Source of the DNA: a virus
Direction: 5' to 3' (one strand)
Length of the DNA: 64,000 nucleotides
Virus record (IMG/VR): IMGVR_UViG_3300050120_000135
Positions within the stretch are counted from its first letter, which is position 1; each line of letters begins with the position of its first letter. The notes beneath the pieces were generated by a model. The model did no database searches. It was not told the DNA's origin and saw only the letters and a program-made list of their open reading frames with translations. Positions 9,485 through 37,548 of the stretch are shown in pieces. The position numbers and the translations under genes were made by a program.

Positions 9485-9566
9485 TAAGTCACAAGGAGGA
9501 AACGCTCAAACCAAGAGCAGCGATAACGCAAAAGCGCTACCGCACCCGGGCTCCATAGTACGCCGG

Positions 9567-10440: not shown

Positions 10441-10473
10441 AGGCCGCCGCCTTTGCTGTTGGCATTTGCGCCG

Positions 10474-16145: not shown

Positions 16146-16157
16146 TGAGCGGTCCTT

Positions 16158-18540: not shown

Positions 18541-19967
18541 GTCAGGGTCACCGCGATGTTGTTGGCATTGATCGTCGGCACCTGGTCGGCGTTGACGTCG
18601 ACGAGCTGCAGCGTCGGCTTCGCCGCCTTCATTGCTCGACTCGAAACGGTCAGCGAATTATTGATGACCCAACTCGACCCCGACCCCGACTGAATAACGG
18701 TGCCGGCAGGTATCGCGCCGAGCAGATCAGAAATCGTCTGTCCAATCGCGATCGTTCCGGTAACAGCGGACGTGGTGAGCGCGGTTCCGGCGATCGAGCC
18801 GGTGAAGGTCGCCCCGGTCGTGTTGTTGGATCCGACCAGTATCGAGATCGGCTGCACCCACGAGCCAAGTGCCGCGATCGGCGCGTAATAGCGGCTTGCG
18901 AAGATCGACGAGGCAATGCGCGCCCGCGTGCCGCCGTCGGCGCCGGCGAAGGCTGCGATGATGGCTGCCTGGATCAGGGCAGCAGCATTTGAGGGGACTT
19001 GCGAATTGTTGGACAGCACCACCGCGAACAGGATAGCCAGCGACGACGGCCGCTCGAAACTGACCGCATACGACGGCAGCGGCGGCGAGTATCCGGAATT
19101 GCTGTCGTAGACCGTAACCGTCGTGTTGCCGTTGTAGCCGCAGCCCGGCGCCTTCTTAGTCCATATCGAATTGGCGACATCCTGATCTAGGCCGCCCACC
19201 GCCGACACATAGAGCGATTTTGCCGCGATCGACACGCCGCGAATTGTGATCGGCGAGGAAGTGGTGTTTTCCGTCACGTAAGCGTCGAGCACGTCCGAGA
19301 CATCGAGCACGGCACCGAGAACGGAGGGAAGCGAACCGCGCGCATTCTTGGCGACCTGCGCCTGCCGCTGCAATTCAAACTCAGCGCGGCTCTGCACAAG
19401 ATTGCCGAGCACGCCGTCGGCAATGTTGGTGATGCTGTCCCATCCGGGGATAGCTTGAAAGATTGTCGACAGGCTACCGGCCGGGCACGCGATCGGCCCA
19501 TTTGTGTTGCACGCAAAAGTCAGCGTGATGTTACCGGTCGAAGGAATGCCCGTTACCGGATCCGTGCCGTCGGTGCACGTATAGATCAGCCCGTCCGTTG
19601 CTCGAGCGGTGGCGCCGGCCGGAATGATGACGCCCTGCCCGCCGGTGCAAAGCGCCTCGACAACAGTCGGCTGCGCCGGCTTGCGCGTGATGAAATAAAT
19701 ACGACCTAGCGCGTCCTGCGCGCGCCCCGACGCATAGGCCGGGTCGAAGTTGTTGAACAGGTTTACGACGCTTGAATTCTTCTCGCCGATGATCGCGGTC
19801 GTCGAAGTTGCCAGCTGTCCTTGCGGCGTGTTCAGCGCCGGGTTGACGCCGCCACCGAATGCCGCATCGATGTCCGTCTGCACGCCGGCGAGCACGGCCG
19901 CGTCGCTCGGCGCGACAAAGCCTCGATCGGTGAAGGTCAGGCCGGGAACATTGGTCGTCACTGTCAT
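18537..19967 (-). CDS. baseplate J/gp47-family protein with extra C-terminal module
   Basis: 476 aa. Position and length fit the Mu/P2 baseplate order. The C-terminus carries the TGSIAG module. Confidence 0.8.
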   Translation of the reverse strand: MTVTTNVPGLTFTDRGFVAPSDAAVLAGVQTDIDAAFGGGVNPALNTPQGQLATSTTAIIGEKNSSVVNLFNNFDPAYASGRAQDALGRIYFITRKPAQPTVVEALCTGGQGVIIPAGATARATDGLIYTCTDGTDPVTGIPSTGNITLTFACNTNGPIACPAGSLSTIFQAIPGWDSITNIADGVLGNLVQSRAEFELQRQAQVAKNARGSLPSVLGAVLDVSDVLDAYVTENTTSSPITIRGVSIAAKSLYVSAVGGLDQDVANSIWTKKAPGCGYNGNTTVTVYDSNSGYSPPLPSYAVSFERPSSLAILFAVVLSNNSQVPSNAAALIQAAIIAAFAGADGGTRARIASSIFASRYYAPIAALGSWVQPISILVGSNNTTGATFTGSIAGTALTTSAVTGTIAIGQTISDLLGAIPAGTVIQSGSGSSWVINNSLTVSSRAMKAAKPTLQLVDVNADQVPTINANNIAVTLT

Positions 19968-19968
19968 G

Positions 19969-20319
19969 TCAGAACGCCGCCGGTGTTACAGTGCCATCCG
20001 GACCCGTGATCTGGATCTGTCCAGACGCGCGACGGTTGGCAAAGGAAGTGAAAAACACGGTGGCCGAGATAACCTCAGGCACCAGCAATGCTTGACCGAC
20101 GTACTTCTGCTTCATCAGCGATGGATTCGGCGCGCGTCCGAGGAACGATTGAAAGTAAGGCACGCCGATAGTGCTGTTGTAGTAGCACTCGCCGAGGAAG
20201 GTCCGCGCTGCGCTCGCAGCGTCCTGCGCCAGTGAATAAGGGTTGCTTGCGACCGCGATGTTACCGTTGACGTCCAACGCCAGATCCCACGTGTTCACGC
20301 CTAGGAAGATCGTTTTCAT
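19969..20319 (-). CDS. small baseplate protein (gpW/gp25 position)
   Basis: Only the last 116 aa (MKTIFLGVNTWDLALDVNG...) of ORF 19969..20838 look coding. The start overlaps the upstream stop (TGATG). Confidence 0.6.
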   Translation of the reverse strand: MKTIFLGVNTWDLALDVNGNIAVASNPYSLAQDAASAARTFLGECYYNSTIGVPYFQSFLGRAPNPSLMKQKYVGQALLVPEVISATVFFTSFANRRASGQIQITGPDGTVTPAAF

Positions 20320-21068
20320 CAGTTGTGCGGTCCCGCCGTGTTGCCGCCGCCGGTCTGAACGCCGCCATGCTTGTGGTTCTTGCCGCTGATGCCGCCGGCG
20401 ACGACGTCGGTGTCGCCGGTCACAGTGCCGCCGACATGGATGTCTCCGACATATAGGCCGCCGCTTACGTTCTCGATTGAGCCGCCGAGCTGCAGCGCTC
20501 CCTCGAGCGTCGCAACACCTTTGACGTCGACCGTCTGGTTGAAAACGACGGGCCCCGTGAACGCCCATCCGGTCGAGCTCGTGACCAAGCTGTTCGAGTT
20601 TTTGTCGTGCAGCTCCATACCGGTGTCGGTGAACTTGATCTCCTGGTCGGGGTCGCCGTTCAGCACGCCGCCAAAATAGATGCCGTCGGCCGCGGCGAAG
20701 CGATTGTCCGAGCCCGGGTTCGAGACTGCCTTGGTCGCCTTCACCGCGGAAATATCGCGATCGGCGCAAGCCATGATTCCGATGTCGCCAACGACCGGGT
20801 CGGCCGAGATTTTGTTCTTGCCGAATTGCCATGCCCAATACGGAATACCGAGAATCGTCCCGTGCGGTGTCGAGCGATTGTCGCCGTCGAGCTGGTTTAC
20901 CATCGGCTGCACGTCGACGGTTTTAGCGTCGGTGTCGACCGCCTTCACCTGAACGATCTTGATCGTCGAAATCTTGGAGATCTGCTGCCAGATCATAAAC
21001 AGCAAGGGGTTCGTTTCCCCGACGCTGTCGCTTGGGTCTTGCTGGCCGAACCCGGATTCGTTCGCCAT
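20319..21068 (-). CDS. baseplate central spike / assembly protein V-like
   Basis: 249 aa. Beta-rich, with a Gly-rich C-terminal needle-like repeat. Position is between the hub-like and W-like genes. Confidence 0.65.
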   Translation of the reverse strand: MANESGFGQQDPSDSVGETNPLLFMIWQQISKISTIKIVQVKAVDTDAKTVDVQPMVNQLDGDNRSTPHGTILGIPYWAWQFGKNKISADPVVGDIGIMACADRDISAVKATKAVSNPGSDNRFAAADGIYFGGVLNGDPDQEIKFTDTGMELHDKNSNSLVTSSTGWAFTGPVVFNQTVDVKGVATLEGALQLGGSIENVSGGLYVGDIHVGGTVTGDTDVVAGGISGKNHKHGGVQTGGGNTAGPHN

Positions 21069-21956
21069 TTATCGGACCGGCGTCGGGAATTTCGGATTGT
21101 AGGCCATGATGGTTGACTCCCACACTCCGCTCGGCGCCTGGGCCTCGAGCTCGTGGCTAAGGCCATAGATGGCCCACTCGCCGGTCGTCAAGACAGAACT
21201 CTCGACGCTTATTTTCTGACCGAGGCCCAAGGTCGGGTCGTAGAGATTCTTCACCATGATGCCGTAGGCGGTATAGGTCGGATAGCCCTGCATCGCGCCC
21301 TTCGGTGGCGGAGCGATCACCGGCACCTTGTTGCTGCGCGCGCCGTTCTTCGGCCAGATGGCCAGCAAGCCGCCCTCGCCGGCGTTCCACGCGATACCGG
21401 CCTGCCTCACCGCTGCGCGCGCCTGGTCGCGCAAGGAGCCGGAGAAGTAACAATTCGGCAGCTTCGTCTGCACGCCGGAATTCTCGAACCGCAGACCCAT
21501 TTTCGTGGCGTAGCCTGACATGATCGTAGCAACATCGGCGGGCCCGCGGAACGTCGATGCGTCCGCCGGCGCCGTGGCGTAAGCGCCTAGCGTGTGCGCG
21601 CTGATGTGAAAAGCGACTTCGGGCTGCGCGTTGTAGTCGGCATAAGCTGCGATGATGTAGCCCTCGAACGCCGTCGACATATTGCCGCCGAGCGTGCCGG
21701 CCAGCAGCGTGATGGGGTTCTTCGGCACCAAGTTGATCTGCATGCCGAGCGTCGAGAGCTGGTTCATGAGCGATCGTGTCATGCCGTAGATCGTAAGATC
21801 CATGGTGCCGTCGGATAAGCCTCCGGCATTCTGCAGCGTCGCCTTCATGCGCAAGCCGTCGGGCAGCGTGACCGTATTTCCTCCTTCCTTGAAGGTGGCA
21901 CCGCTGGCTGCAAGCGTAATCTTGGCGCCGAGCGCGCGTTCGACGAGCTCGACCAT
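21069..21956 (-). CDS. putative baseplate hub protein
   Basis: 295 aa. Assigned by position in the Mu/P2-like order. Confidence 0.55.
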   Translation of the reverse strand: MVELVERALGAKITLAASGATFKEGGNTVTLPDGLRMKATLQNAGGLSDGTMDLTIYGMTRSLMNQLSTLGMQINLVPKNPITLLAGTLGGNMSTAFEGYIIAAYADYNAQPEVAFHISAHTLGAYATAPADASTFRGPADVATIMSGYATKMGLRFENSGVQTKLPNCYFSGSLRDQARAAVRQAGIAWNAGEGGLLAIWPKNGARSNKVPVIAPPPKGAMQGYPTYTAYGIMVKNLYDPTLGLGQKISVESSVLTTGEWAIYGLSHELEAQAPSGVWESTIMAYNPKFPTPVR

Positions 21957-22262
21957 CTAGGCTGCCTCGAAGTAGATCAGCTGGAAGCGATCGCCGAGGC
22001 CGGTATAGAGCGGGTCGATCGGAGTGTCGCCGCCGAGCGTATCGAAAAACGCAAGGTCCCCGGGGAAACCGAGATAGGCATCGCGCACGATCGGATTCCT
22101 GTCCTCGCAAATCACGCCGAGAACGACGACTTCGCCGTTAATAAACACGTCGACGAACAAGCCGCTTGAGAGCTGATAGATGTTCAGGTCGCAGGTTTGG
22201 CCTGCGAGCGGAACGGTCAGCGTCTGGTTTGGTACCGCCTGCAGCGGAATTCTATCGGGCAT
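21957..22262 (-). CDS. tail/baseplate hypothetical protein (101 aa)
   Basis: Tightly coupled within the tail module. Confidence 0.55.
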   Translation of the reverse strand: MPDRIPLQAVPNQTLTVPLAGQTCDLNIYQLSSGLFVDVFINGEVVVLGVICEDRNPIVRDAYLGFPGDLAFFDTLGGDTPIDPLYTGLGDRFQLIYFEAA

Positions 22263-22981
22263 CAGGGTAACGCCTGCGAGAGACTGAAATCGGTTGCCGA
22301 TACCGGGACCGGCTGCACGGTGCCGTCGTTAATCACGGGCGCCGCAGTGGGCGAAAGCGGAGCTACGATCGGCGCCGTCGTCGGGAACCGGTCGTTGAAG
22401 GTGGTCGCGCCGCTGCCGGCGGTGTTGCTGTCGCTGGCGGTCGGGCTGGTCGCGCTCGATGCCGATGTCGAAAAGGTCGATGCCGCGCGAACCCGAACCT
22501 CCTCGCAGAAAACGTCGACCTGGATCAGGCCCACCCCGTTCTGCGCGGTCCGGCGATAGTCGTAGTGCACCGGGTTGACGTTCGGGTAGACCGCCTCCGG
22601 GCTGACCGCGTCCATCAAGCTGAGCGACCGGATGGCCGCCGCCACGCTCTCGAGCAGCGCCTGCCGAGCCGCCGGCGTGTCACCGGTGGCGAACCGCATC
22701 CGGACGTCGTAAGGCTGCTGCACCTTGTTGTAGCTCTCGAACCCGCCGTCCTCGACCGGGAAGCTAGAAATCCGCGCACCCTTCTTGAAATCGAACGAAA
22801 CGACCGACTCCGCGGTCACGACCGGCACCCCGTCGAGAAACAGGCCCCAGGGAGGGCTGTCGAGGCCGCCGAACAGCGAAAGTGCGTCCGCCGTCAGTAG
22901 CTGCACCACGGCGGCGACCGCGCCAGGAGCCCGCGGGAGCGCCGGCACGCCCGGGACGTTGGGAACATTCGGGAAGGCCAT
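22262..22981 (-). CDS. tail protein (239 aa) downstream of the tape-measure-like gene
   Basis: Coupled to its neighbours. No recognisable motif. Confidence 0.55.
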   Translation of the reverse strand: MAFPNVPNVPGVPALPRAPGAVAAVVQLLTADALSLFGGLDSPPWGLFLDGVPVVTAESVVSFDFKKGARISSFPVEDGGFESYNKVQQPYDVRMRFATGDTPAARQALLESVAAAIRSLSLMDAVSPEAVYPNVNPVHYDYRRTAQNGVGLIQVDVFCEEVRVRAASTFSTSASSATSPTASDSNTAGSGATTFNDRFPTTAPIVAPLSPTAAPVINDGTVQPVPVSATDFSLSQALP

Positions 22982-24412
22982 TTACTGCTGCCCGCTGTTG
23001 GCTTGCGCCGCGAAGCTTTGCCGCCTTACCGCGCCCGCGAACGAAGCTGCCCAAGCGTCCGGATTGGCGCCGGCCGGCGGAGTGACGTTTACCGTATTGA
23101 TGTGAACCTCAGTCGAGGTGTTCGATCCTCCGCCGCCTTCAGCGTTGAATCGCTGAACATAGTCAGCCCCGGAAGTTCCGTTCAGGTCGCGAAGATTGGC
23201 CCCGCCGGAAAGCGGTTTACCCGTCAGCCACATTGACGCAGCATCCTGCGGGTTGCCGAACTTCTTCACATAGCCGCCGAAGCGATGGTCGAAGATTTTG
23301 TCCTGTGATTCCGGAGAGGCCATGAATTCTGCGATAGACAGTCGCTTCCCGAGCGCGGCCTGTGACCAATCACCAATGTTGCTGCCCATGATCTGATATT
23401 TGCCGTAGGCTTGGTCGCCTGATCGCGTCGGCGGACCTACGGCAGCATAACCGCCGCTCCCACGGCTTTCGATGTTGGCAATCGCATTGCGCCACGCCGG
23501 GTTGCCCGCATCCGAACCTAAACCGGACGAAGTGCCGGGCAATATCGGGCTCCCCGGCTTGCGAACCTTGGAGTCCGGATTGGTGAGGTAGTCATAAGCT
23601 TCCGATGGCGTCATGTTGAGAATGTCGGAAGCCTTGATGATGCCTGGAATGATGCCGCTCTGGCGACCGCGCTCGTCTGTCTTCAAGAAGATCGCGTTCC
23701 AACGGCGCTCAAGTTCGCCAGCGGCGTCAGCGGATTCTTTTGTCGCGCCGCCGATCTTTTGAATGGCCGCCAGAATCTGCGGAAGCTTGCCGGTTATCAT
23801 TGCGTCATAGAGAGCGGGATCGAGCCCGACTGAGCGACCGAGAAGACCGGCGCGAGCCGGTCCATCAGGACCGCTGTCATGTATCGTCTTCAGGTTTTCG
23901 GCGAGATCGAACATCGATTGCTCAACGCCCTTATTGACATCGATGATTTTACCGCCTGCTGTTGAGATGGCTCGCAAGTCCGCGATCAGCGGAGAAACCT
24001 TGCCTATCTGCCACCCGGCGAAAGCGTCCGATATTGAAGTAAATGACTGCGCCATCCCCTTGGCGTCGCCGCCGAAGACTCGAGCGACCCCCTGCCACTT
24101 AGAAATAACCTGTTCCGAAACTCCGATGTTGCGGCTCACCCGACCGACAGCGGCATCGGCGTTCGTCAGGTCTTTGACAAACTCAAAAGCGCCCTTGCCG
24201 CCAGTAAACACCGCAAACAGCTGCAAGGCCTGTGTGCGCAATTCGCCGATTGCGGCTCCTGCTCGGTCTGAGCCGTACTCGATATTTTTGGCCGAACGCG
24301 TCTGCTGGTCTTCAAGCTTTTTGGCCGAATCGAACGCCTGCTGCTGGCCCTTCGTGAACTTGGCAGGATCGAGACCAAGTTCGACCACAAAGCTGTCGAT
24401 TACAGTCGGCAT
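22982..24412 (-). CDS. tape-measure-like tail protein with soluble lytic transglycosylase domain
   Basis: GAGGAAA RBS before MPTVIDSF. SLT motif NAIANIESRGSGGY...AYGKYQIM in the C-terminal half. Confidence 0.75.
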   Translation of the reverse strand: MPTVIDSFVVELGLDPAKFTKGQQQAFDSAKKLEDQQTRSAKNIEYGSDRAGAAIGELRTQALQLFAVFTGGKGAFEFVKDLTNADAAVGRVSRNIGVSEQVISKWQGVARVFGGDAKGMAQSFTSISDAFAGWQIGKVSPLIADLRAISTAGGKIIDVNKGVEQSMFDLAENLKTIHDSGPDGPARAGLLGRSVGLDPALYDAMITGKLPQILAAIQKIGGATKESADAAGELERRWNAIFLKTDERGRQSGIIPGIIKASDILNMTPSEAYDYLTNPDSKVRKPGSPILPGTSSGLGSDAGNPAWRNAIANIESRGSGGYAAVGPPTRSGDQAYGKYQIMGSNIGDWSQAALGKRLSIAEFMASPESQDKIFDHRFGGYVKKFGNPQDAASMWLTGKPLSGGANLRDLNGTSGADYVQRFNAEGGGGSNTSTEVHINTVNVTPPAGANPDAWAASFAGAVRRQSFAAQANSGQQ

Positions 24413-24957
24413 CGGCAACTTTCCTCGCGCGCCCACTGTTCCGGGTCTTTGGCGCCCTTGCGATGATTGCAGGGCTGGCAAAGCAACTGGATATTTGTGA
24501 TCCAGTTCGAGCCGCCGCGCGACAATGGCTTGATGTGGTCGACGTGATAGCCGCGCTTGATGGACTTCCCGCACTTCGCATTCGCGCAGCAATGTCCCTG
24601 TTTTTCGGCGAGCGCCAGAACCTCGTCCTTGGTATGCGAGCCTTCGGCAGCGCGAAGTCGCGCGGCCCTGTTCCTTGTTCGGGTTCTGCCGCTTTCCGGA
24701 TTAGCGCGACTGGAACGCCGGTCGTTCGCTCTCTTTTGGTCCGGGTTCGCCCGCGCCCACTCTGCTTGATATGAGATCAGTTCGTCGCGGCGCCGCTGGT
24801 AGTACAGCTTTTTGCTCGCGCGAATTTCGTTGCGTTTTTCTTTTTGACGCGCCGTCGATTCCGCAATGCGCGCATCTCGGTTCGCGGCATAGGCCGCTGC
24901 CTTTTGTGCGCGACGGCGCTCTCGGTTGGCGGCTTCCCATGCCTTGCTATCAAACAT
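24400..24957 (-). CDS. HNH endonuclease
   Basis: 185 aa. Basic repetitive N-terminus. C-terminal GYHVDHIKPLSRGGSNWITNIQLLCQPCNHRKG. Confidence 0.85.
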   Translation of the reverse strand: MFDSKAWEAANRERRRAQKAAAYAANRDARIAESTARQKEKRNEIRASKKLYYQRRRDELISYQAEWARANPDQKRANDRRSSRANPESGRTRTRNRAARLRAAEGSHTKDEVLALAEKQGHCCANAKCGKSIKRGYHVDHIKPLSRGGSNWITNIQLLCQPCNHRKGAKDPEQWAREESCRCRL

Positions 24958-24959
24958 TG

Positions 24960-25597
24960 CTACCGGCTTTTGTTAAGACGCCTGCGATTGTAGAGGTCCA
25001 CCAGCGATATTTCCAGCAGATCATAGGCGTCTTTTAGCGAATAGACCGTGCTCAACTCATGCAGGGTCGCCATCCGCATCGATACCACGGAAGCAATTAT
25101 TCTTGGGACGTTCCGGTATTCAATGAGGCCGAGATCTTCGCCGACACCGCCGTCCTCAACATCAATGCGATCTCGGCTGAAGTAAAACCTACGTGCAGTT
25201 CCAGGATCTGTTGCCTCAGCAGCATCAGCGTCGAGACTTCCTCGACCAGCATCTCGTTCCACGGAATCAGGATGGTCGCGCCGGCCGAGTTCTCTCCTGC
25301 CGGCGGCTTGGACTGCACGCACGCCGGCAACATCTCGCGCCAGAGCGGCAGCACCGCGTCCTCGCGCGCGCCCATGAAAGCCTGGTAGCCGATCAGCGCG
25401 AACCCGATCAGGCCCGCGTCCGCGATCTCCTGCGGCACAATGATTCCAGATGTGCCGAGCGCCATCATGGCGCGCAGTCCCCACTCCTCCGCCAGCACGG
25501 CGGAGACTTCGGTCAGGAGAAACGACTTGCCGGCGTCGCGATTCTCCTTCTCGCCGTCGGCCGGTCTGTCGATGATGACAATTTTTGTTCTGCGCAT
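24960..25597 (-). CDS. putative -1 frameshift extension product of the tail chaperone (GT-like)
   Basis: The -1 frame is open through the chaperone 3' end to 24960 and ends ...LIEYRNVPRIIASVVSMRMATLHELSTVYSLKDAYDLLEISLVDLYNRRRLNKSR. The only T-run candidate is GGTTTTA at 25183-25189. Confidence 0.4.
25097..25597 (-). CDS. tail assembly chaperone (gpG/gpE-like by position)
   Basis: 166 aa (MRRTKIVIID...) lying between the tube and tape-measure genes. The rest of ORF 25097..26449 is a shadow of the tube and sheath genes. Confidence 0.6.
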   Translation of the reverse strand: MRRTKIVIIDRPADGEKENRDAGKSFLLTEVSAVLAEEWGLRAMMALGTSGIIVPQEIADAGLIGFALIGYQAFMGAREDAVLPLWREMLPACVQSKPPAGENSAGATILIPWNEMLVEEVSTLMLLRQQILELHVGFTSAEIALMLRTAVSAKISASLNTGTSQE

Positions 25598-25599
25598 GT

Positions 25600-26028: not shown

Positions 26029-26061
26029 GGGGCGAATTCCTTGAAGTGAGGGAGGAGAGGC

Positions 26062-27813
26062 TTAGAGCAGCACGATCGACGCCATGTCGAATTCCTGCAC
26101 GGATTCGCCATCGACATAATAGAACGTCATCGGCGGCGAGCCGCGCGCCTGTCGCACGTCGGGAGCCGCCACGCCGATGTCGAGGTACCAGCCCTGGTTC
26201 GTCAGCGTGTCGGCGATGTTCTTGCCGGCCTTTGAGTTGACGTCGGCGATCTGCGAGGCCGACAACGCAACACCGGACCGGTAGGCGCCAAAGTTCAGGA
26301 ACTTGTTGATGGTGTCGGCGAGGCCCGCCTCGATCAAGGCGCGGCCGGCGGCATTGTACGGAATCGAGTAGACCGTCTGCAGCAGGTTCGTCATCGAACT
26401 TCGGAACGAGCTGTTCAGCGCAATCTGGTTGCAATAGCTGTCCATCCACAGGAAGTCGCCGGAGACCACGCCGTCGGCATACCAGACGAAACTGTCCTCA
26501 CCGTCGGCGTAGGCTCCATAGGTATTGTAGCCGTTCGCCTTCAGGTTATCGAAGGTCGTCTGGTCGGTGACGCCCGGCACCAGGCCGGACTGCTGGCGGA
26601 ATTTGAAGACAACGCGGCCGTTCAGCTGGTCGAAGTCGATCGAAGCCGCGGTACTGCAGACGAAACAAGCCAAATTGGCGTAGTCGATCGCCGCAACGGG
26701 ATTGACGATGGCAGACGCCGACGGCTGCCAGTTGCAGCTGACGCCCTGAATCTTCGCCGTCTTGATGCGCTGCGCAAGGCATGACGTCGCCGGCACCGTC
26801 ACGACCGGCGCGGCATCGTCGTCGATCGCGACGAACGCATAGCGGTCGTTCTGCGTGCCGTTCCAGGTCGCGAACGCGTACCTGATGTCGTTGCCGCTCA
26901 CGTCAGGATTGAAGTTCAGCATCCATGTGCCGAACGATCGGTAGTTACCGACCAGCGTATTCATGAACGCTGCCGGCACGGCCGCGTCCGCGCCCTGCGA
27001 GAGCACGGCGCCGGTCACCTGCGTCAGCAGCAGGTCGGTCGCCATGGCTCCGGAGCCATAGGTGATGAGCGACGCCGCGCCGGTCGTCGCCGAATTGATA
27101 ACGAAGGCGCCGGAGACGCTGTCATAGTTCACGGCCGGAGCGTGAGCGGTGACGCTGGTCGAGCCTGCCGTTTGGCTGATGCTGACAGTGTAAGTGCCGA
27201 GACCGCCGACCGGGCCGGTCAGCTGGTTCAGAATGGTGGTGTCCGCGGTAATGCCGGAGCCGACCAGGATCTGACCAGCCGCAAGGATGCCGGTCAAACC
27301 GGAGGCCGCGGTGAAGGTCGTCCCGGCGATGGACCCGGTGACGGTCGCAGCTGAGGCGCCTTCGATGTCGAGTGCAGCCGCGATAATCTCGGCCGCATTG
27401 GTGAACGAAGTCGCGCCGCTGAGATTGACGGAGCCGGTTTTCAGCACGCCGTTAATGGTCACCGACAGCGTGCCGCTGAAGGCCTGCAGCTGAGCGAGTG
27501 TCAAGCCCGACACGTCGCCTCCGCGCACGTAGGCCGCGACCGCGGCAAGCGGATATTGCGCAAACGCCACCTTCGCCGGCTTCTTGTTCGAGTTCAAAAA
27601 GCCCGGGAAATAGTGCTCCGCGTTGTTCTCCTCGGCCGAGCCCGCGCCGAAGAAATCGGTCACGCCCTCGATCGAGGAGAATTCCGCCACGGTGCCGATC
27701 GGAATGCGCGTATTCTGCGTCAGGATCAGCGTGGTCAGCGTCACGGCCGAACCGCCGGCGGGAAGTACCCCGGGAGTGACGCGGACGTCTTCGCTGATAG
27801 GAATCGTGCTCAT
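26062..27813 (-). CDS. tail sheath protein (DUF3383-like) with inserted module
   Basis: 583 aa. CGAGGA RBS upstream. The N-terminus MSTIPISEDVRVTPGVL is DUF3383-like by recollection. The tube gene follows. Confidence 0.75.
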   Translation of the reverse strand: MSTIPISEDVRVTPGVLPAGGSAVTLTTLILTQNTRIPIGTVAEFSSIEGVTDFFGAGSAEENNAEHYFPGFLNSNKKPAKVAFAQYPLAAVAAYVRGGDVSGLTLAQLQAFSGTLSVTINGVLKTGSVNLSGATSFTNAAEIIAAALDIEGASAATVTGSIAGTTFTAASGLTGILAAGQILVGSGITADTTILNQLTGPVGGLGTYTVSISQTAGSTSVTAHAPAVNYDSVSGAFVINSATTGAASLITYGSGAMATDLLLTQVTGAVLSQGADAAVPAAFMNTLVGNYRSFGTWMLNFNPDVSGNDIRYAFATWNGTQNDRYAFVAIDDDAAPVVTVPATSCLAQRIKTAKIQGVSCNWQPSASAIVNPVAAIDYANLACFVCSTAASIDFDQLNGRVVFKFRQQSGLVPGVTDQTTFDNLKANGYNTYGAYADGEDSFVWYADGVVSGDFLWMDSYCNQIALNSSFRSSMTNLLQTVYSIPYNAAGRALIEAGLADTINKFLNFGAYRSGVALSASQIADVNSKAGKNIADTLTNQGWYLDIGVAAPDVRQARGSPPMTFYYVDGESVQEFDMASIVLL

Positions 27814-27847
27814 GGTGCTGGTCCTCGTTTAAGGGGAGAAAGATTAT

Positions 27848-28444
27848 TCAGGTCGCGACGACGGAGACGGTCGAGTTCGGCCAAGAAGCAGGATCCGTGT
27901 CGACGTTGGTCAGATCCAGGTCGAGCGCGCGCGCCGATTGCGCGGTGATGGTTATCTTCTGATTGACCTGCAGGTTCGCTTCAATGATGTAGCGGTCTTC
28001 GTACTGCTGCTCGCCGCTGTTGAACGGCATGTTGCGCGGATGATCCGCATAGAGCGGTGCGATCGTGGCCCCAAGCGCTGCGAAAAAGTCGACCGCATAG
28101 CTTGATTGAAACATTGTCGTGATCACCGACGAATTGTTGAAGGCTTCCGGCCCGTGCACGTCAAGCTGTATCGTGCACTGCGAGGACTGCTCATACGTCG
28201 CCTGCAGGCCGAGCGCGATCATCTTTTCGACGGTGGTCGACAGCTGCGGCATGCGAAGCGGCCACATCACGACATAGTTCGAATTAACTGGCGTACCCGG
28301 ATTTACCGGCTCCGAAACGCGGTTCTCCTGCCCGACGACGACGACATGCAGCACCGTGGGCCCGGAGCTCTGCACCGGCAGCACGTCCTGCAGGAACGCG
28401 CGAATTGCCGTGAAGACATCGTCCTCGGTCGGCGCGACGATCAT
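27848..28444 (-). CDS. neck / tail-completion protein
   Basis: 198 aa. Lies just upstream of the sheath gene. Confidence 0.55.
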   Translation of the reverse strand: MIVAPTEDDVFTAIRAFLQDVLPVQSSGPTVLHVVVVGQENRVSEPVNPGTPVNSNYVVMWPLRMPQLSTTVEKMIALGLQATYEQSSQCTIQLDVHGPEAFNNSSVITTMFQSSYAVDFFAALGATIAPLYADHPRNMPFNSGEQQYEDRYIIEANLQVNQKITITAQSARALDLDLTNVDTDPASWPNSTVSVVAT

Positions 28445-28773
28445 TTGTAGTAGCTGATGTTCAGCTTGGCGCCGGACGTCTGCTCGATAAACTTCACGTT
28501 CTTCAGCGGACCCGTGTAGATCAGCAGCACGCCGACCGCGATCGGCTGGCCGACGGTGGCGGATGGATCTGTACCGTCGTCTCGATATCGCACAGCCTGC
28601 GCCTCTGCCTGAATAAACGCGGTGGTAGCTCCGGTCGGCACCGTCAACCCGGCCGCGGCCGACAGGCTCGTGATCTGCTGATAGCCGAGCGCAGCATATC
28701 GAATGCCGGCATCGGCGATAGCCTGCGTTCCGACGAGCAGTAGCGCAGCAACAAGCGCGATGACCTTCTTCAT
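28441..28773 (-). CDS. small Sec-signal-peptide protein (110 aa) in the neck module
   Basis: GAGG RBS upstream. N-terminus MKKVIALVAALLLVGTQAIADA. Paralog of the interrupted gene at 12373..12622. Confidence 0.65.
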   Translation of the reverse strand: MKKVIALVAALLLVGTQAIADAGIRYAALGYQQITSLSAAAGLTVPTGATTAFIQAEAQAVRYRDDGTDPSATVGQPIAVGVLLIYTGPLKNVKFIEQTSGAKLNISYYK

Positions 28774-28789
28774 GAAAAACCTCGTGGGG

Positions 28790-29194
28790 TTAGACGAACG
28801 GGGTGAGTTGGTCGACCTGCAGCGTGATGGCGACCTTGCACCACTGCAGCCAGCGCTCAAGCACGTGGGCTGCAAGCCACGTCGTGCCTTCCGGAAAGGT
28901 GCCGGACGGGAAGACGAGGAGATCGCCGCCCTGCTGCTGCACGCGCACGATCGACATGACCTGACTATTCGCATAGATGGCGCGGCGAACGCCTTGAATG
29001 TTCAGCCCGTCGAGCTGCTGCAGGTCGGAATACGACAGCGCTTGCGCCTGCACATAGATCGGCAACTTGCTGTAGGTCGGCGCTCGCTTGCCGCTTGCCG
29101 CGGTCGTCGATCCTGTCGAATGCCAGAGCTCGCACCTGACGTTCGGGTTGATCCCGCGCGTCACCAGGTTTGCAGCGGCTCGCAGGTTCACCAT
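28790..29194 (-). CDS. head-tail joining protein (hypothetical)
   Basis: 134 aa. Assigned by position. Confidence 0.55.
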   Translation of the reverse strand: MVNLRAAANLVTRGINPNVRCELWHSTGSTTAASGKRAPTYSKLPIYVQAQALSYSDLQQLDGLNIQGVRRAIYANSQVMSIVRVQQQGGDLLVFPSGTFPEGTTWLAAHVLERWLQWCKVAITLQVDQLTPFV

Positions 29195-29622
29195 CGAGCT
29201 CTCCTGGCCGCGCGCTCCGATCGGCGCTGCTCACGCATCGACTTCGGGCTCGGCCGAGCGCGCAGCGGGATGACGCCCGCCATCGCGTCTTCAATCGAGC
29301 GGTCTTGGTGCAGCAGATCGACTTGGTGCGAGAGCACGCCGTTTGCGAGCCGAGCGTCGAGATCCGGAGACTTTGGATCGAGGTACGGCCGCTGCGGTTT
29401 GCCTTCTTCCGCCAGCGTGATGTTCTGCTCGTAAATCTTCTCGTTGACGTCGATAATCTGCGAGACGATCGACGTCGCTAGAATTTTGATCGGTGCATGG
29501 TCGATCGCGGCCCTGGTCTTCGGGCCGAGGTCCTCCATCGAGGCTAGCTCCATATAACCGGGAACGAGCGCCTGCGCGCCCGGCGTTCCAATTCCTATAT
29601 TGCTGCCGCGTCGAAGTACCAT
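29188..29622 (-). CDS. hypothetical head-tail module protein
   Basis: GGAGGAAGG RBS before MVLRRGSN. Confidence 0.5.
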   Translation of the reverse strand: MVLRRGSNIGIGTPGAQALVPGYMELASMEDLGPKTRAAIDHAPIKILATSIVSQIIDVNEKIYEQNITLAEEGKPQRPYLDPKSPDLDARLANGVLSHQVDLLHQDRSIEDAMAGVIPLRARPSPKSMREQRRSERAARRARW

Positions 29623-29678
29623 GACCGCCTTCCTCCGGTTGCTGGCGTCCGCGATACCACGAACGCCGCCGGAATGCA

Positions 29679-30320
29679 TCAAAGACAGATGTAGCTCCAA
29701 TTTGTATTTGCGAGGACCGCGCCGTTAAAAACGACGCTGGCCGTCGAGGGAGCGCTCACGAAGGGCAGTGTGGTGGCGGCAATCGCCGCAGCGTTCATCG
29801 CCATAAAGACACATGCCTTTGGTGCCGCCGCCAGCGTTGCTGACCACGAGATTGTGCACGTCGTCGTGGCCGCGGCGCCGATGGTGATCGAACCCGCCTG
29901 GTTTGTGCTGCCGGCGACGACGGCCCCGTTGGTGGTAGTGCCGCATGCCCCCGACGCGATCGTTGGTAGGCCCGCACTTGACGTAATCTGGCCGGAGAAG
30001 TTGCCAGTCGTGAACTTGCCGGAATTGGCCGCGGTGGCACCGATCGGGGGAGGAGACGCGAATAGCGCCGTGACGCCGGCACCGCTCGGCGCGATGGTCG
30101 ACGATAGCGTCGTGAAGTTGCCGGGCGCCGGCGTGGTGGCGCCGATGGTAGTGTTGTCGATCAGGGCCGGCGTCGAGTTGGCGCGGTTCGGCGGCGAGAA
30201 CGGGAAGGTGATCGCGCCGTTGCGCTCGGTGAGGAAGTTGGTGTTGCCGGCGATTGCCGGCGAGAGCAGGGCGATCGACGCAATGGCTGCGGCAACGATG
30301 GAAAAACGGGACTTCATCAT
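29679..30320 (-). CDS. Sec-signal-peptide protein with tail-fibre-like repeat motif
   Basis: AGGAG RBS upstream. N-terminus MMKSRFSIVAAAIASIALLSPAIAG. IGATTPAPGNFTTL resembles IGTSTPLAGTFTTL in the 1170 aa fibre. Confidence 0.65.
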   Translation of the reverse strand: MMKSRFSIVAAAIASIALLSPAIAGNTNFLTERNGAITFPFSPPNRANSTPALIDNTTIGATTPAPGNFTTLSSTIAPSGAGVTALFASPPPIGATAANSGKFTTGNFSGQITSSAGLPTIASGACGTTTNGAVVAGSTNQAGSITIGAAATTTCTISWSATLAAAPKACVFMAMNAAAIAATTLPFVSAPSTASVVFNGAVLANTNWSYICL

Positions 30321-30344
30321 CGGGTAGTCTCCTGGTTGGTGGTT

Positions 30345-30857
30345 CTACGGTTTGGCAGCCGCGGCCGTCTTGGCGAAGCCGCCGGCGTTGGTCGTCGGTG
30401 CCGACAGGCTGATTTTCGACGTCGTCACTTCCCAAGCCGCGGCGTTAATCATGTCGCCGTGCTCGATCAGCGGTTTGTCGAAGCCCTTCTTGGCGATCGT
30501 CTTTGGCGAGAGCGGTGGCGCCCATAAGTCGAGGATCGACTCCTGCAGCTGGCCCTTGATGGCTTCGCCGGCTCGCTCCAGCGTCAGCTTGGCGTCGTAG
30601 TTCGTCGCCTTCAGCTGGTGTGCGATACCGTCGGGCCACTCGCCCGACTTCGCCGCGATCATGTTCCGGAAAAAGGGGCGGGGCGGCACGTTGCCGTGCC
30701 CGAATTCATTCATAGCCGCGCGCAGCGGGATGGAGTCGCCGTTCGGCGCCGTGGCGCCTTCAAGGAACCCCACGCGCAGGGTTCCCGGTTGGTCGAGTTT
30801 GGCAGCAAGGGCGGCCAAGGCCTGTCGCAGCTTATGGCCGCCCTTGATCGAAGCCAT
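30345..30857 (-). CDS. HK97 gp10-like head-tail connector protein
   Basis: 170 aa from MASIKGGHKL. Contains the FGHGNVPPRPFFRNM motif. Confidence 0.65.
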   Translation of the reverse strand: MASIKGGHKLRQALAALAAKLDQPGTLRVGFLEGATAPNGDSIPLRAAMNEFGHGNVPPRPFFRNMIAAKSGEWPDGIAHQLKATNYDAKLTLERAGEAIKGQLQESILDLWAPPLSPKTIAKKGFDKPLIEHGDMINAAAWEVTTSKISLSAPTTNAGGFAKTAAAAKP

Positions 30858-30861
30858 GGTT

Positions 30862-31458
30862 TTAGACTTGGTCCGTCCCGGCAACGGGCTGCTTGACGGC
30901 AACGTCCGCGGCCGTAGCGGGGTCCAGAGAGGTCGGGCCGGCGCCGCCAGCGGTATCGGTACCGGAAACGTCGCCAGCCACGCCACCGGTCGCCTCTGCG
31001 CCGGGAGCAGGCGCTTTAAGCGGGTCCGCCTGCTGGTCGACTTCGCCGTCGAGCGACAGCAGTACCTCCAGCCCATCCCGGTTGGCGTCGAACCAGGTCA
31101 GCATGGACGTCATCCGGTCGACCAGGTCCGGCGGCAGCTGCTGCTTGGATTCCTCCAGAGCCGAAATCCGGGTAGCCAAGCCGTCATCGTGGCCGCTCTC
31201 GGCGAAGGCGGTCTCCAGCTTGGTCAGTCGATCGCCGAAACCGTCAAACGTGACCTTCTGCAGTTCTCGGTCCGCGTCCGACATGCCGACGGCGCCGGGT
31301 AACGGCGCTGCGTTGGCGCCCTGCTTGGACAGCGCTGCCAATGCATCAGGGTCAATGCCGAGCTTCTTCAGATACTCGATATAGGCGATCGCGCTCTCAA
31401 CGCGGGTTCGGAACGCCTTCAAAGCGTTCACGTCTTTTAGCATCGCATCGTGATCCAT
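30862..31458 (-). CDS. hypothetical protein (198 aa)
   Basis: AGAGGAG RBS before MDHDAML. Confidence 0.5.
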   Translation of the reverse strand: MDHDAMLKDVNALKAFRTRVESAIAYIEYLKKLGIDPDALAALSKQGANAAPLPGAVGMSDADRELQKVTFDGFGDRLTKLETAFAESGHDDGLATRISALEESKQQLPPDLVDRMTSMLTWFDANRDGLEVLLSLDGEVDQQADPLKAPAPGAEATGGVAGDVSGTDTAGGAGPTSLDPATAADVAVKQPVAGTDQV

Positions 31459-31526
31459 GGTCGACTCCTCTTTGCGCTGTGCGCGGTTGACAGGTTCGGG
31501 TTCTCGGCCGCTTTGGTCGGCCAACA

Positions 31527-31796
31527 CTAAGGGCCCGCGGGCGGGTCCTTTTCGTCGCGGGCGGTGATCATCCCGTTTTGCACCACCGACAGGTTCGGGT
31601 TTTCTGCGAGCCACAGCTCATAGAATTCCTTGTCGATGCCGGAATTGTCGCCCTGCTTCAGCGTCACCATGTCGCCGATCGGCACGCGCGTCTCCTGGCC
31701 CATGAAGCCCTTGTGGATCTGGTGCAGGGCGATCTGCAGGCCGTTCGGTATCGAGCATGACACCGTCACGGTCGGGCGCTTCTTCTGGTCAGTCAT
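31527..31796 (-). CDS. hypothetical protein (89 aa), paralog of the C-terminal part of 32281..32889
   Basis: ATGA-coupled. Shares the TVxVxC..P.G...EF...N.NL....G pattern with the 202 aa protein. Confidence 0.6.
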   Translation of the reverse strand: MTDQKKRPTVTVSCSIPNGLQIALHQIHKGFMGQETRVPIGDMVTLKQGDNSGIDKEFYELWLAENPNLSVVQNGMITARDEKDPPAGP

Positions 31797-32275
31797 CGTC
31801 GTCTCCCTGGAAAGTATGCAGGATAAGCACTGCCACCGATTCCGGTTCCGAACCTGGTCGGGCCCGGCATGTAGCGCGCCATCCGATAGGCAGCGGCTGC
31901 CTGCCAGAAGTTTGCGCCGAACGTGGTTTGCAAAAACCACGCGTTGTTCGCAGTTGTCGGCCAATCTGTGCCGACCGAGACCGAGCCTTCGCTCGCGCTG
32001 TTGACGCGGCCGACGATTCCTGACGGCGGCTCGCCGTTGATACCGAACATCAGTTGCGCGATATGCGCGGTCAGCTGCCACAGCAGCGACTGCTGCAGGG
32101 CAACCGTGCGCACCGGGCTCGTACCATCGTTGCGAAGATAGATCGTCGCGAGACTGAAGGCCTCCGCAAGCTGCGGGTCAGTCAAGGTCGCAAACATGGG
32201 ATACGCGACCTTGAAGGCGGTCGGGTCGAAGACAACGACCGGACCGCCACTGCACACCGGGATGCAAGCAACCAT
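31793..32275 (-). CDS. DUF4054-like head-tail connector protein
   Basis: 160 aa. VFDPTAFKVAYPMFATL is DUF4054-like by recollection. The exact start is uncertain. Confidence 0.6.
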   Translation of the reverse strand: MVACIPVCSGGPVVVFDPTAFKVAYPMFATLTDPQLAEAFSLATIYLRNDGTSPVRTVALQQSLLWQLTAHIAQLMFGINGEPPSGIVGRVNSASEGSVSVGTDWPTTANNAWFLQTTFGANFWQAAAAYRMARYMPGPTRFGTGIGGSAYPAYFPGRRR

Positions 32276-32280
32276 CTTCG

Positions 32281-32889
32281 TTACGCCCTCTTTTGCCGAC
32301 CAGGAACGTCGCTATCGCTGTCGATCTCGATGTCGGTCAGGTTCGGGTTGTTCTCCGGCTCGACGCGCGGATCCTTCTCCTGCGAGAGCGGCTCGAGTCC
32401 GTGCTTCAGCTTTTCGAACTCATAGCAATACGCCGCAGCGTCCGCTTCGGTATCGAACGCCTTCATGAGGCCCGACGTGATGAGCTCGAGGTTCTTGTTC
32501 TGCTCGGCGTAGGTTTTCCAGAACTCGGCATCGACGTCGCGCGTGAGCGAGAAGCCCGCGACGATCGGGTAGTTCGGCATCATGCCGAACGGCAGCACCG
32601 CCGGCTTCAGACGGACCTGCGCACCGACGCGCATCGGCACCTGGCGTTTCTCGACGCCGCCGCCGGACACGCGTACGTCCTGCGAAATGAATTGCGTGTG
32701 CTGCAGATAAACGCCTCGCGGCATTTTGCAGACAACGACCACGGTGCGCGCGGTCGCTTTGACGCCGCCGGCGCCTTTGGTTTCCCTGATGGCAGGAGCG
32801 GCAGGTTCGTTTGACGCCGGGGGAGTTGCTGCAGCGGTCTTTGCGCTGGTAGCTGCTCGCCGGGCCTTCTCGGCTTTCGAGACAGTCAT
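32281..32889 (-). CDS. hypothetical head protein (202 aa)
   Basis: Lies directly downstream of the major capsid gene. Paralogous to 31527..31796. Confidence 0.6.
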   Translation of the reverse strand: MTVSKAEKARRAATSAKTAAATPPASNEPAAPAIRETKGAGGVKATARTVVVVCKMPRGVYLQHTQFISQDVRVSGGGVEKRQVPMRVGAQVRLKPAVLPFGMMPNYPIVAGFSLTRDVDAEFWKTYAEQNKNLELITSGLMKAFDTEADAAAYCYEFEKLKHGLEPLSQEKDPRVEPENNPNLTDIEIDSDSDVPGRQKRA

Positions 32890-32924
32890 GTCGAAGTTCT
32901 TCTTTCAGTTTGGGGAGGGTGAAA

Positions 32925-32949
32925 GGGGCCGCGCCGAATGCGCGACCCC
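32925..32949 (-). terminator. stem-loop immediately 3' of the major capsid gene
   Basis: 10-bp GC stem (GGGGUCGCGC/GCGCGGCCCC with one G-U pair) and no strong U-tract. Confidence 0.45.
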
Positions 32950-32983
32950 TTGGTCGTGTGGTTTCGTACCGTGACCGGCTATA

Positions 32984-34072
32984 TCAGATGCCGATCATGC
33001 TGGCGATGGCGAACGGCTGACGGATAACCGCGCCGAGCGTTCCGCCGACCATCTTCTGCTTGTAGCTCGACAGGTCGGGGATCAGCCGGCCAGCGCGCAT
33101 TTTTACGTTGTAGGCGACGAAGCCGGTCTTCTGGCTGCGGACGTCGGTGCAGATCAGCTGCGCGAAGTTGCCGCCGACAACACCTTGCGGGTTGCTTGCC
33201 GACTGAATGCCGTACTGCACCGCAGACACGATCTTCAGGTTCGGGAAGTTCTTCGACAACAGGTCCGACACGTTGACGTCGAACGAGTTAGTCGCGGTGA
33301 TGGCGCCTTCGGAGATCGGCGACAGCGCGAGCACGAAGTTCGACTTCACGTTGATATTGCCGCCGGCCTGCTGGATCAGCTGCAGGGCGAGCGACTGGAT
33401 ATCGAGGAAGATCTCGTTCGGGGTCGCGGTGATGACGTTGTTCGTCACCCACTGGTTATTGCCGTAGGCCTTCGGCGACGGCGTGATAGCCGCCGTCAGG
33501 TTCGGATCGTTCAGGAAGCCGTAGTTCTGAAGACCGGCGATGCCGAAGAAGTAGCTCTGGTTCTGGAACCGGTTGATGGCCCAGGCCGCAGCCGCGTTAA
33601 GCTGGTTCAGCCAGTTGATCTTCGCGAGGCCGACGACATCGAGCTCGCGATCGCCGTACTGCAGGATCGTCTGGAACAGGAACGGCTGGCGCGAGGGGAA
33701 GTTCGTGTTCGCGTTCACCGACCCGTTGTTGCTGTAGTCGCCATAAGCCGACGTCTCGCCCGTGTGCTCGACGGTCGGGAACATGACCGAGTTCAGCGTC
33801 CAGTCGCCCTTCTGGACTTCGTCGAAGATCGACTTGGCTTCAAGCGGCGAGAATAGAATCTCGTACACCTGCGGGTCGATCATCGTCGACAGCCACACCG
33901 GAATGCCGGTGTTCGGCGTGGTCGTCAGCTGCGGCTGCGCGTCCATCGCCATGCCGATGTCTTCGGACCATCCGTCGGGCACATAGTGACGGACGTCGGG
34001 AAAGACGGCACCGAGCGCTTCGAACCTGCGCTTGTCGCCGGTGAACTGCGTGCGTGCTTCGATCAAATTCAT
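32984..34072 (-). CDS. major capsid protein (DUF2184-like / HK97-fold)
   Basis: 362 aa. Position follows the protease/scaffold and decoration-like genes. Family recalled from the N-terminal and GDYSNNG region. Confidence 0.8.
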   Translation of the reverse strand: MNLIEARTQFTGDKRRFEALGAVFPDVRHYVPDGWSEDIGMAMDAQPQLTTTPNTGIPVWLSTMIDPQVYEILFSPLEAKSIFDEVQKGDWTLNSVMFPTVEHTGETSAYGDYSNNGSVNANTNFPSRQPFLFQTILQYGDRELDVVGLAKINWLNQLNAAAAWAINRFQNQSYFFGIAGLQNYGFLNDPNLTAAITPSPKAYGNNQWVTNNVITATPNEIFLDIQSLALQLIQQAGGNINVKSNFVLALSPISEGAITATNSFDVNVSDLLSKNFPNLKIVSAVQYGIQSASNPQGVVGGNFAQLICTDVRSQKTGFVAYNVKMRAGRLIPDLSSYKQKMVGGTLGAVIRQPFAIASMIGI

Positions 34073-34090
34073 CTGGAGAGCCTTTCATTG

Positions 34091-34120
34091 AAAACAAAAA
34101 GGCGCTCCAGAGGAGACGCC
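34091..34120 (-). terminator. terminator-like hairpin just upstream of the major capsid gene
   Basis: On the minus strand: GGCGUCUCC-UCU-GGAGCGCC followed by UUUUUGUUUU. Confidence 0.5.
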
Positions 34121-34178
34121 TTGGGGGGGTGAAGACAGTTACGGAGCGCGGCCGTTGGTCAGCCGCGCACCGCGGGAT

Positions 34179-35156
34179 TTAGATGACGTTCGAGACCTTG
34201 ACGATCTCGCCGTTGGCGCCGGCCGACTTGGCGATCCACTTCGTCTCGATCGCGTTCTGCGACGTGATGGCGGTGGAGCTGACGACAGTGTTGCTGTCGA
34301 CCACATAGGTACCAGCCGCGCCGGTGGTGCCGGTGAGCTGCTGGTAGACCTTGGTGCCAGTGTCGACACCGGATCCCGAGATGGTTTGCCCGCCAGCGAA
34401 GCCGCTGACCACGGTGCCGCCGACCGTCAGAATGCCGTAGGTACCGGTCAGCGTGGTCGAGGCAACCGTCTGTTCCGGAATCGAGAGTGCATAGGTGCCC
34501 TTGAGTCCGAGGGTGCCGCCCGTTTCGGTCGACGTCAGCTGCTCTACGATCTTCGTGCCGCTCGCCGCACCGACGACGGTCGCGCCGGCGTACAGATTGC
34601 CGGAGCCGACCGCGGTCACCGTCATCACGTTGCCGGCGATCGAGCCGGTGACGGAGAACGTGCCGGCAGCAACCGACGATGCCGAGCCTGAGCCGCCGGG
34701 CGGCGTCGCGCCGGCAGCTGCGAAGTATGCCGTGCCATCGGCGAAGTTCGCGAACGCCTTCATTCCGACCTGCGCGAGCGTGGCGCCGGTGTTCCTGATC
34801 CAGAAGTCGCCGTTGTTGAAAACGACGGCCTGCTGGCCCTTCAGAAGCACAAGACTCGCGGTCGCGAGGTAGGGAGTGATGAGACCGATCTGCTCGCGGT
34901 GGATAAGACCAGCGGGCAGGCCGGAACCGAACGTGTCGACGATCGCGGGCGCGTTGTCGTTGTCGACGCGCTCGTAGGACAGCCACGCGAAGCGGCCGAC
35001 CACGATGCCGTTGACGAGAGCACCAGCAATATAGCCATTGCCGGAAACGAGCGCGCCTTCACCGGCGAGCACGGTGCCGCGCGGGTTGGCCGAGGCAAAG
35101 TCGCCTTCGACCGCCGGGGCCTGCATGGTGTTAACCTGGTTGGGAAAGTCGGTCAT
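34179..35156 (-). CDS. head structural/decoration-like protein with two TGSIAG-type modules
   Basis: AGGAGA lies 7 nt before the ATG (the first M in the track is TTG). 325 aa. The C-terminal half holds two tandem about 60 aa repeats. Confidence 0.7.
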   Translation of the reverse strand: MTDFPNQVNTMQAPAVEGDFASANPRGTVLAGEGALVSGNGYIAGALVNGIVVGRFAWLSYERVDNDNAPAIVDTFGSGLPAGLIHREQIGLITPYLATASLVLLKGQQAVVFNNGDFWIRNTGATLAQVGMKAFANFADGTAYFAAAGATPPGGSGSASSVAAGTFSVTGSIAGNVMTVTAVGSGNLYAGATVVGAASGTKIVEQLTSTETGGTLGLKGTYALSIPEQTVASTTLTGTYGILTVGGTVVSGFAGGQTISGSGVDTGTKVYQQLTGTTGAAGTYVVDSNTVVSSTAITSQNAIETKWIAKSAGANGEIVKVSNVI

Positions 35157-35183
35157 CAAAGTGTCTCCTGGTTTCGATTTTCA

Positions 35184-37398: not shown

Positions 37399-37548
37399 CG
37401 GGCACCTCATGGAATTGGTGCCGGCGGGCGGGGCTAACCCACTCTGCGCGCCCCGTCGGGCCTCGCCGGCAAAGCCTGTGCGCGTCACGCGCGGCTGAAG
37501 TGAGGAAGCACCAAGCCGCCGTCTAAGCCGGCGAACCGGCCACGCACA

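Follow-up and report, generated by a model that had tools for sequence, protein, structure and literature searches.

The viral record IMGVR_UViG_3300050120_000135 of IMG/VR, analysed here over a stretch of 64,000 nucleotides (the window) of a 72.66-kb source contig, encodes on its minus strand three virion proteins that carry between them four copies of one small domain, referred to below as the module. The tail sheath gene (26062..27813; 583 amino acids, aa) is of the DUF3383 / E217 gp31 type (E217_gp31_N): its product matches PF11863 at E = 1.9e-108 (364 bits, cut-off 34.9), the tail sheath family phrog_205 and, among sequences of the Protein Data Bank (PDB), Pa193 gp32 and E217 gp31, and the flanking genes match Phage_tail_terminator_9 and E217_Gp32. 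The gene for baseplate wedge protein J (18537..19967; 476 aa) is recognized by PF04865 (9e-9; 35.4 bits, cut-off 21.1), by the baseplate wedge subunit family phrog_6 (2e-44) and by PDB matches to E217 gp44 and Pa193 gp45, and it adjoins a DUF2612/Phage_Wedge1 gene. The third carrier gene (34179..35159) encodes a head decoration (minor capsid) protein of the XM1 gp53 type, with matches to PF23982 over aa 8-177 (1e-13; 51.9 bits, cut-off 27) and to the minor head protein family phrog_2122 (6e-33). Its open reading frame (ORF) yields 326 aa from a TTG at 35159 or 325 aa from the ATG one codon on, at 35156, and the adjacent downstream ORF (32984..34072) shows a weak Major_capside match that lies under the Pfam cut-off.

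Four copies of one module

The module occupies 27130..27354 in the sheath gene (aa 154-228) and 18612..18818 in the baseplate J gene (aa 384-452), the latter being a short-loop variant with the motif GSGSSW; in the decoration protein two copies stand in tandem, the first at 34452..34664 (aa 166-236) and the second at 34245..34451 (aa 237-305), all on the minus strand. The 1,179 six-frame segments of the window were compared with a profile derived from 351 module instances, all of them from proteins outside the window. This profile recovered all four copies, with E-values of 3.9e-20 (sheath), 2.2e-12 (baseplate J), 3.5e-14 and 5.4e-11 (decoration copies 1 and 2), and matched the window at these four sites only, the next best segment having an E-value of 0.7. 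A sequence-only reading of this DNA had claimed that one module is shared by three unrelated virion proteins and is tandemly duplicated in the 325 aa head protein. Both claims are borne out, as Pfam and PHROGs assign the carriers to separate families and the external profile matches every copy. The peptides on which that reading was based are all present, in three minus-strand ORFs, and the ranges it gave are equivalent to residues 146-213 of the sheath, 385-446 of baseplate J and 167-299 of the head protein, fitting the module to within about 10 residues; when the same ranges are read on the plus strand, they translate to nonsense.

Within the window itself the similarity is more modest. With leave-one-out profiles the sheath copy reaches 2e-10, the head protein 4e-7 and the baseplate J copy a weak 0.006, and pairwise BLASTP between carriers gives 1.7e-6 for sheath against head protein and 0.002 for sheath against baseplate J. 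The short-loop variant of baseplate J recurs as GSGxSW in external instances, and the family as a whole has the consensus ..FTGSISGTTLTVTAVTSGTLAVGQ.I.G.GV.AGTTIT...TGTGG.GTYTVS.SQTV.STT.T. The composition is strongly skewed (Thr+Ser 35%, Gly 17%, charged residues 2.9%, as against 11-13% charged residues in the rest of the three carriers).

A skew of this kind raises the question of whether the module is a homologous domain at all or a low-complexity artefact of Gly/Thr/Ser (G/T/S) richness, the alternative against which the sequence-only reading had itself been set. Thr, Ser and Gly make up about 50% of module residues, the HMMER bias terms are large, and a low-complexity-filtered tblastn search of 50,697 phage records with the consensus and the C-terminal half of the head protein returned no matches, a result that we attribute probably to the filter and do not read as absence from isolated phages. 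Against this, the real copies score 39.6-71.5 bits, whereas the best of 500 shuffles of each reaches 5-11 bits and the reversed copies -11 to 6.5 bits, so that no control exceeds 11 bits. Together with the external profile and the structural results described below (a pLDDT of 98 in the AlphaFold2 model and matches to predicted viral structures at TM-scores of 0.82-0.95), the shuffle controls refute the artefact explanation, to which we now attach practically no probability, and the homology of the four copies is established.

A compact all-beta domain

AlphaFold2, given the sheath copy and 113 aligned instances, predicts a structure made of strands only, with a predicted local distance difference test (pLDDT) of 98.1 and a predicted TM-score (pTM) of 0.86. 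Two long strand stretches can each be read as a hairpin, which would bring the total to about six strands. According to the model, the module is an autonomous, compact all-beta domain of about 65-75 residues; whether it forms an independent beta-domain was a question that the sequence-only reading had put to structure prediction. The conserved positions are mainly Gly, Thr, one Tyr and alternating hydrophobic residues.

A sequence-profile search of the PDB with the module returned only noise, with no solved structure matched, and a Foldseek search of the PDB gave no fold match at E <= 0.001. The best solved-structure likeness was to the 124-residue chain 1 of 8eci, an entry from a phage particle (Arthrobacter phage Bridgette), at probability 1.00, a TM-score normalized to the query (TMq) of 0.69, a root-mean-square deviation of 3.2 A and 29% identity over 76 columns; its E-value is just 0.12, and the likeness is undetectable by sequence profile. 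Other near folds in the PDB include the barrel of the ubiquitin E1 enzymes Uba1/Uba6 (TMq 0.47-0.60, probability up to 0.69, E >= 1.2) and the T5 distal tail protein. In a library of predicted viral structures, the module domain was matched at TMq 0.82-0.95 with 35-50% identity. Its carriers there are a major capsid protein of the HK97 type, a P22 gp10-like protein, tailspikes with a pectate-lyase fold, fibres (one lambda Stf-like, others with an S74 chaperone), a tip attachment protein J and collagen-repeat proteins of a giant virus.

Internal insertions into the carrier proteins

Burkholderia phage vB_E159 has the same gene order as the window, and its orthologues of all three carriers are without the module. 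The vB_E159 sheath (498 aa) aligns to aa 3-139 and 220-582 of the window sheath, which places the insert at about aa 147-225; its baseplate J (411 aa) aligns only to aa 4-380 and 456-475, the insert being aa 381-455; and its decoration protein (158 aa) aligns only to aa 5-152 and 303-323, with an insert of aa 153-302 that spans the tandem pair. The sheaths of E217, Pa193 and XM1 are 495-504 aa long. Because the vB_E159 orthologues align on both flanks without the module, each module, or in the head protein the tandem pair, is a clean internal insertion, with the sequence of the carrier continuing beyond the gap. In the wedge and decoration proteins it is the conserved last strand of the carrier that resumes after the insert.

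In the sheath, the position of the insert corresponds to a point between residues ~155 and ~164 of Pa193 gp32 / E217 gp31. Residues 91-210 of Pa193 gp32 have been described as a 'flexible domain' (PMC11456595), the counterparts of which are domain A of E217 (PMC10329688) and an outward-oriented insertion domain of the XM1 sheath (PMC10457771). Since the insert maps inside this flexible or insertion domain, the sheath module is a domain nested in a domain that is itself an insertion. In decoration proteins of the XM1 gp53 type, the N-terminal part binds the capsid protein and the C-terminal part forms the trimer; the tandem pair of the window protein is located in the C-terminal (trimerisation) part, right before the last strand. 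From the alignments with homologues we infer that the modules of the decoration and wedge proteins are likewise outward-facing.

Variation and history of the copies

The number of modules at a given site varies among orthologues. Baseplate J orthologues with one copy (E about 1e-157 to 1e-170) are found in Rhizobium, Mesorhizobium and Acetobacteraceae genomes, and decoration orthologues with two copies in Bosea, Rhodospirillaceae, Burkholderia and an Acidobacteriia metagenome-assembled genome (MAG); three copies occur in a Herbaspirillum decoration orthologue and in the sheath orthologue of an alphaproteobacterial MAG. Taken together, the same site holds 0, 1, 2 or 3 copies in the sheath, 0, 1 or 3 in baseplate J, and 0, 2 or 3 in the decoration protein. 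As orthologues without the module exist and copy number at one site ranges from 0 to 3, the module is dispensable for assembly. The alphaproteobacterial relatives, taken with the G+C content of 61.7%, suggest that the host of the window phage is an alphaproteobacterium.

A relative of the window phage, IMGVR_UViG_3300037242_000092 (locus L076), has modules in four proteins, namely the tail terminator (two), the sheath (two), baseplate J (three) and a protein of 1,602 aa (two; ORFs 3..959, 1012..2997, 8960..10849 and 12929..17734), so that nearly the whole tail exterior would carry a module coat. More generally, the module is present in at least two ORFs at 59 of 79 viral loci, a proportion that is not a population estimate, as many of these loci represent one recurrent lineage in which an adaptor-type protein is followed by a protein of ~630 aa.

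The four window copies are 29-40% identical to one another over their length and 46-58% identical to copies in other genomes and carriers, and at the DNA level they have in common just a stretch of 19-26 nucleotides (nt) encoding TGSIAG. With mutual identity this low, higher identity elsewhere and so short a DNA overlap, the window copies are old or independently acquired; recent copying within the genome was considered and rejected, the copies being closer to foreign ones than to each other. The TGSIAG stretch itself is 88-100% identical at the nucleotide level in the three copies that open with this motif (18612..18818, 27130..27354 and 34452..34664, minus strand): baseplate J and the first head copy match exactly over 19 nt, and the sheath matches baseplate J over 26 nt at 88%. 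It probably reflects conserved residues combined with the codon bias of a 62% G+C genome, and could in principle support recombination.

A large family on phage and bacterial surfaces

With the four copies as queries, no more than 11 short fragments came out of a word-indexed protein search, and it took an exhaustive profile search, over 1.84 billion representative proteins clustered at 50% identity, to reveal the family: 7,626 clusters match at E <= 1e-3 and 2,871 at E <= 1e-10. A profile search of phage and bacterial proteins, which the earlier reading had proposed, finds the module in both. Neither Pfam-A nor NCBIfam has a model that covers it, even in proteins that are almost wholly module, and wherever a looked-up cluster member has a name, that name is 'hypothetical protein', in keeping with the suggestion that the module is uncharacterised. 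The only overlapping PHROG is phrog_21413, of unknown function, which matches across the sheath module (aa 148-245, 6e-10) and the second module of the head protein (aa 243-307, 4e-6), but is an unannotated whole-protein model of 595 positions and does not match the baseplate J copy. Literature searches found no description of the domain, which is not proof that none exists. The module is, then, a graft in this phage, as had been claimed, but it is by no means peculiar to it: the family is very large and extends to bacterial surface proteins.

A genome scan with the consensus sequence, covering one genome per species, confirmed at least 47 module loci, most of them in Alpha- and Betaproteobacteria. 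Other taxa among the matches listed are Bacteroidia, Verrucomicrobia, Planctomycetes, Chloroflexi, Saccharibacteria, Actinobacteria, Acidobacteria and a Nitrosarchaeum MAG. By Pfam, the virion carriers include XM1_gp53, Phage_cement (E217 gp24 / Pam3 gp6), lambda gpD, Phage_capsid_4, Baseplate_J and DUF3383 proteins, in addition to the SU10 adaptor and a tail terminator. Carriers of bacterial type comprise TadE/G-like proteins with a VWA domain, an autotransporter, a protein with a type IX secretion sorting domain, a Laminin_G_3 protein, RHS repeat proteins and a pectate-lyase-like protein. All identified carriers are virion-surface, cell-surface or secreted proteins, and the promiscuity of the module is evident from their diversity. 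Individual examples are insertions into pilus-associated proteins of the TadE/G-like + VWA kind and into the passenger of an autotransporter (alphaproteobacterial MAGs L011, L026 and L035; L028).

In a local re-scan of the matches, as many as 20 copies were found in tandem, and the proteins with such arrays reach 3,700 residues or more. Arrays of 8-20 copies, some of them preceding RHS repeats on the N-terminal side, occur in proteins of 1,000-3,700 residues and are what would be expected of a passive spacer or stalk that just lengthens or stiffens surface proteins, as repeats do in long adhesins, and conserved positions of a structural appearance would suit such a role. Yet no useful length is gained from one copy that is nested in a sheath domain or that just precedes the last strand of baseplate J, and high-copy display on a capsid fits a spacer poorly; as a general explanation of the module we therefore regard this one as improbable. 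A specific receptor-binding domain that sets host range seems very improbable. Other phages do have the module in tail fibres and tailspikes, but in the window phage the sheath and capsid carry it and the 1,170-aa tail fibre does not, and an identity of 46-58% between unrelated phyla is unlike that of fast-evolving receptor-binding tips.

Comparison with known accessory domains

Tailed-phage structural proteins can carry Ig-like or FN3 accessory domains, such as those of T4 Hoc and the Big_2 domains on tail tube and capsid proteins. The phage Ig-like/FN3 domains are reportedly treated in the work of Fraser et al. in 2006 and of Barr et al. in 2013. The module resembles them in being small, all-beta, dispensable, variable in copy number and present on many unrelated virion proteins, as well as in its probable exposure on the particle surface and its occurrence in bacterial cell-surface proteins. 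Unlike them, it is inserted into an internal loop instead of being added at a terminus, and the solved structures closest to it in fold are small barrels and not Ig sandwiches. Ig-like and FN3 Pfam models matched the 113 instances at chance level only (Big_1 in 2/113, Big_6 in 1/113; E 0.015-0.058), and no Ig-fold structure was found among the 50 PDB matches listed. The analogy with Ig-like accessory domains that had been drawn from the sequence therefore holds as far as grafting onto unrelated virion proteins is concerned, given the module-free orthologues of vB_E159, but not for the fold, the closest solved counterparts being small beta-barrels.

A second point of comparison is the E1_FCCH-like barrel (PF16190). 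Barrels of the FCCH type face outward on the tail tube proteins of siphophages (PMC13576161), an outward-facing accessory role on phage tails that is also proposed for the module, and both domains are all-beta and of ~70 residues, with Foldseek TMq values of 0.5-0.6 between the module and the Uba1 barrel. However, PF16190 matched neither the four window copies at E <= 10 nor the 113 instances at E <= 1, and an hhalign comparison of the module alignment with seven FCCH-like sequences, a single comparison with a thin 7-sequence profile, gave a probability of 0.65% and an E-value of 0.087. The module thus appears, by analogy, to function like the FCCH and Ig-like domains of phages, yet it is recognized by the models of neither family.

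An E1_FCCH identity of the module was also considered in view of an archaeal-MAG protein (locus L022, ORF 1214..6928) and rejected, the PF16190 match there being a separate neighbouring domain and the profile-profile comparison not significant. In this protein the E1_FCCH domain (aa 859-918) is directly N-terminal to a module (aa 926-1009). An FCCH-like domain is also encoded in the gene upstream of a module carrier at two other loci (L008, ORF 2706..3440; L042, ORF 2394..3455), so these distinct kinds of small accessory domain seem to move as a pair.

Proposed role of the module

We consider it reasonably likely that the module is a promiscuous, dispensable accessory domain displayed on the surface, which keeps the particle near its host through weak multivalent contacts. 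It is inserted in loops of its carriers and leaves their folds uninterrupted, and, judging from homologous structures, the exterior of head, tail and baseplate would bear it in high copy number. The particle could then be held near its target by numerous weak contacts with polymers, polysaccharide among them, of the host cell or its surroundings, and in long bacterial surface proteins a spacer role might be added. Several observations weigh against this proposal. The conserved positions have a structural look and do not resemble a binding site. The outward orientation in the decoration protein and in baseplate J is derived from homologue alignment, and a single-sequence AlphaFold2 model of the full head protein has a pLDDT of 33. 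Finally, the best PDB fold match comes from a phage capsid entry and could hint at a cementing role.

In its full form, the cementing alternative holds that the module reinforces the particle through contacts between neighbouring subunits (decoration trimers, sheath subunits or wedges) and binds nothing external. Dimeric capsid cement proteins, of which the 8eci chain may be one, have been reported in Bridgette (PMC13033339), and three different decoration or cement protein families carry the module. However, tail fibres, tailspikes and RHS proteins have the module too, as do TadG-like proteins and the passengers of autotransporters; moreover, a range of 0 to 3 copies at a single site is hard to square with a fixed lattice contact. 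We accordingly judge cementing to be unlikely and continue to favour weak multivalent contacts of a displayed accessory domain.

A more specific and rather unlikely conjecture is that the Thr-lined, nearly charge-free face of the module is a conserved binding face for a widespread envelope polymer, candidates being a lipopolysaccharide (LPS) or capsular glycan backbone, the S-layer, a pilus or the flagellum, or else that it is a site of virion O-glycosylation. If a conserved binding face were indeed present, phages with the module on capsid, neck, sheath and baseplate would possess a whole-particle surface for multivalent adsorption, host capture would have a mode separate from fibre-mediated recognition, and the module would define a new, very large family of adhesins or glycan-binding domains common to phages and to RHS, autotransporter and Tad-pilus proteins.

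Other genes of the window

Three further minus-strand ORFs of the window deserve mention. In a 1,484-aa ORF (40879..45333), a portal domain (Phage_portal_3, aa 123-547, 1.4e-70) is joined to a toxin domain of the ADP-ribosyltransferase type at the C-terminus (ADPrib_exo_Tox, 4e-9, aa 1332-1474; ART, 2e-5), a portal-toxin fusion reminiscent of the MuF-linked polymorphic toxins that are packaged in phage heads. Just upstream of the decoration gene, a 748-aa ORF (35242..37488) encodes a NUDIX hydrolase (aa 48-162, 1e-15) fused to DUF2213 (aa 283-441, 4e-42), an unusual enzyme fusion inside the block of head genes. The putative tail fibre of 1,170 aa (12633..16145) has a sub-threshold match to the Peptidase_S74 chaperone at its C-terminus (aa 1070-1121), and the external profile detects no module copy in it.

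Implications

The module represents a new, unnamed and very large domain family, although its functional kind, that of promiscuous virion accessory domains, is already known; it is in this sense of moderate interest and not conceptually surprising, and it adds a non-Ig case to a small set of such domains. Thousands of phage and bacterial surface proteins hold the module without being covered by a Pfam-A or NCBIfam model. Defining the family would improve the annotation of virion proteins and make length differences between orthologous sheaths, wedges and decoration proteins explicable. The outer loops of these three kinds of protein accept insertions of 75-220 residues, a tolerance that phage display and phage engineering could exploit. 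If the module does bind a surface polymer, it would bear on how phages remain near their hosts.

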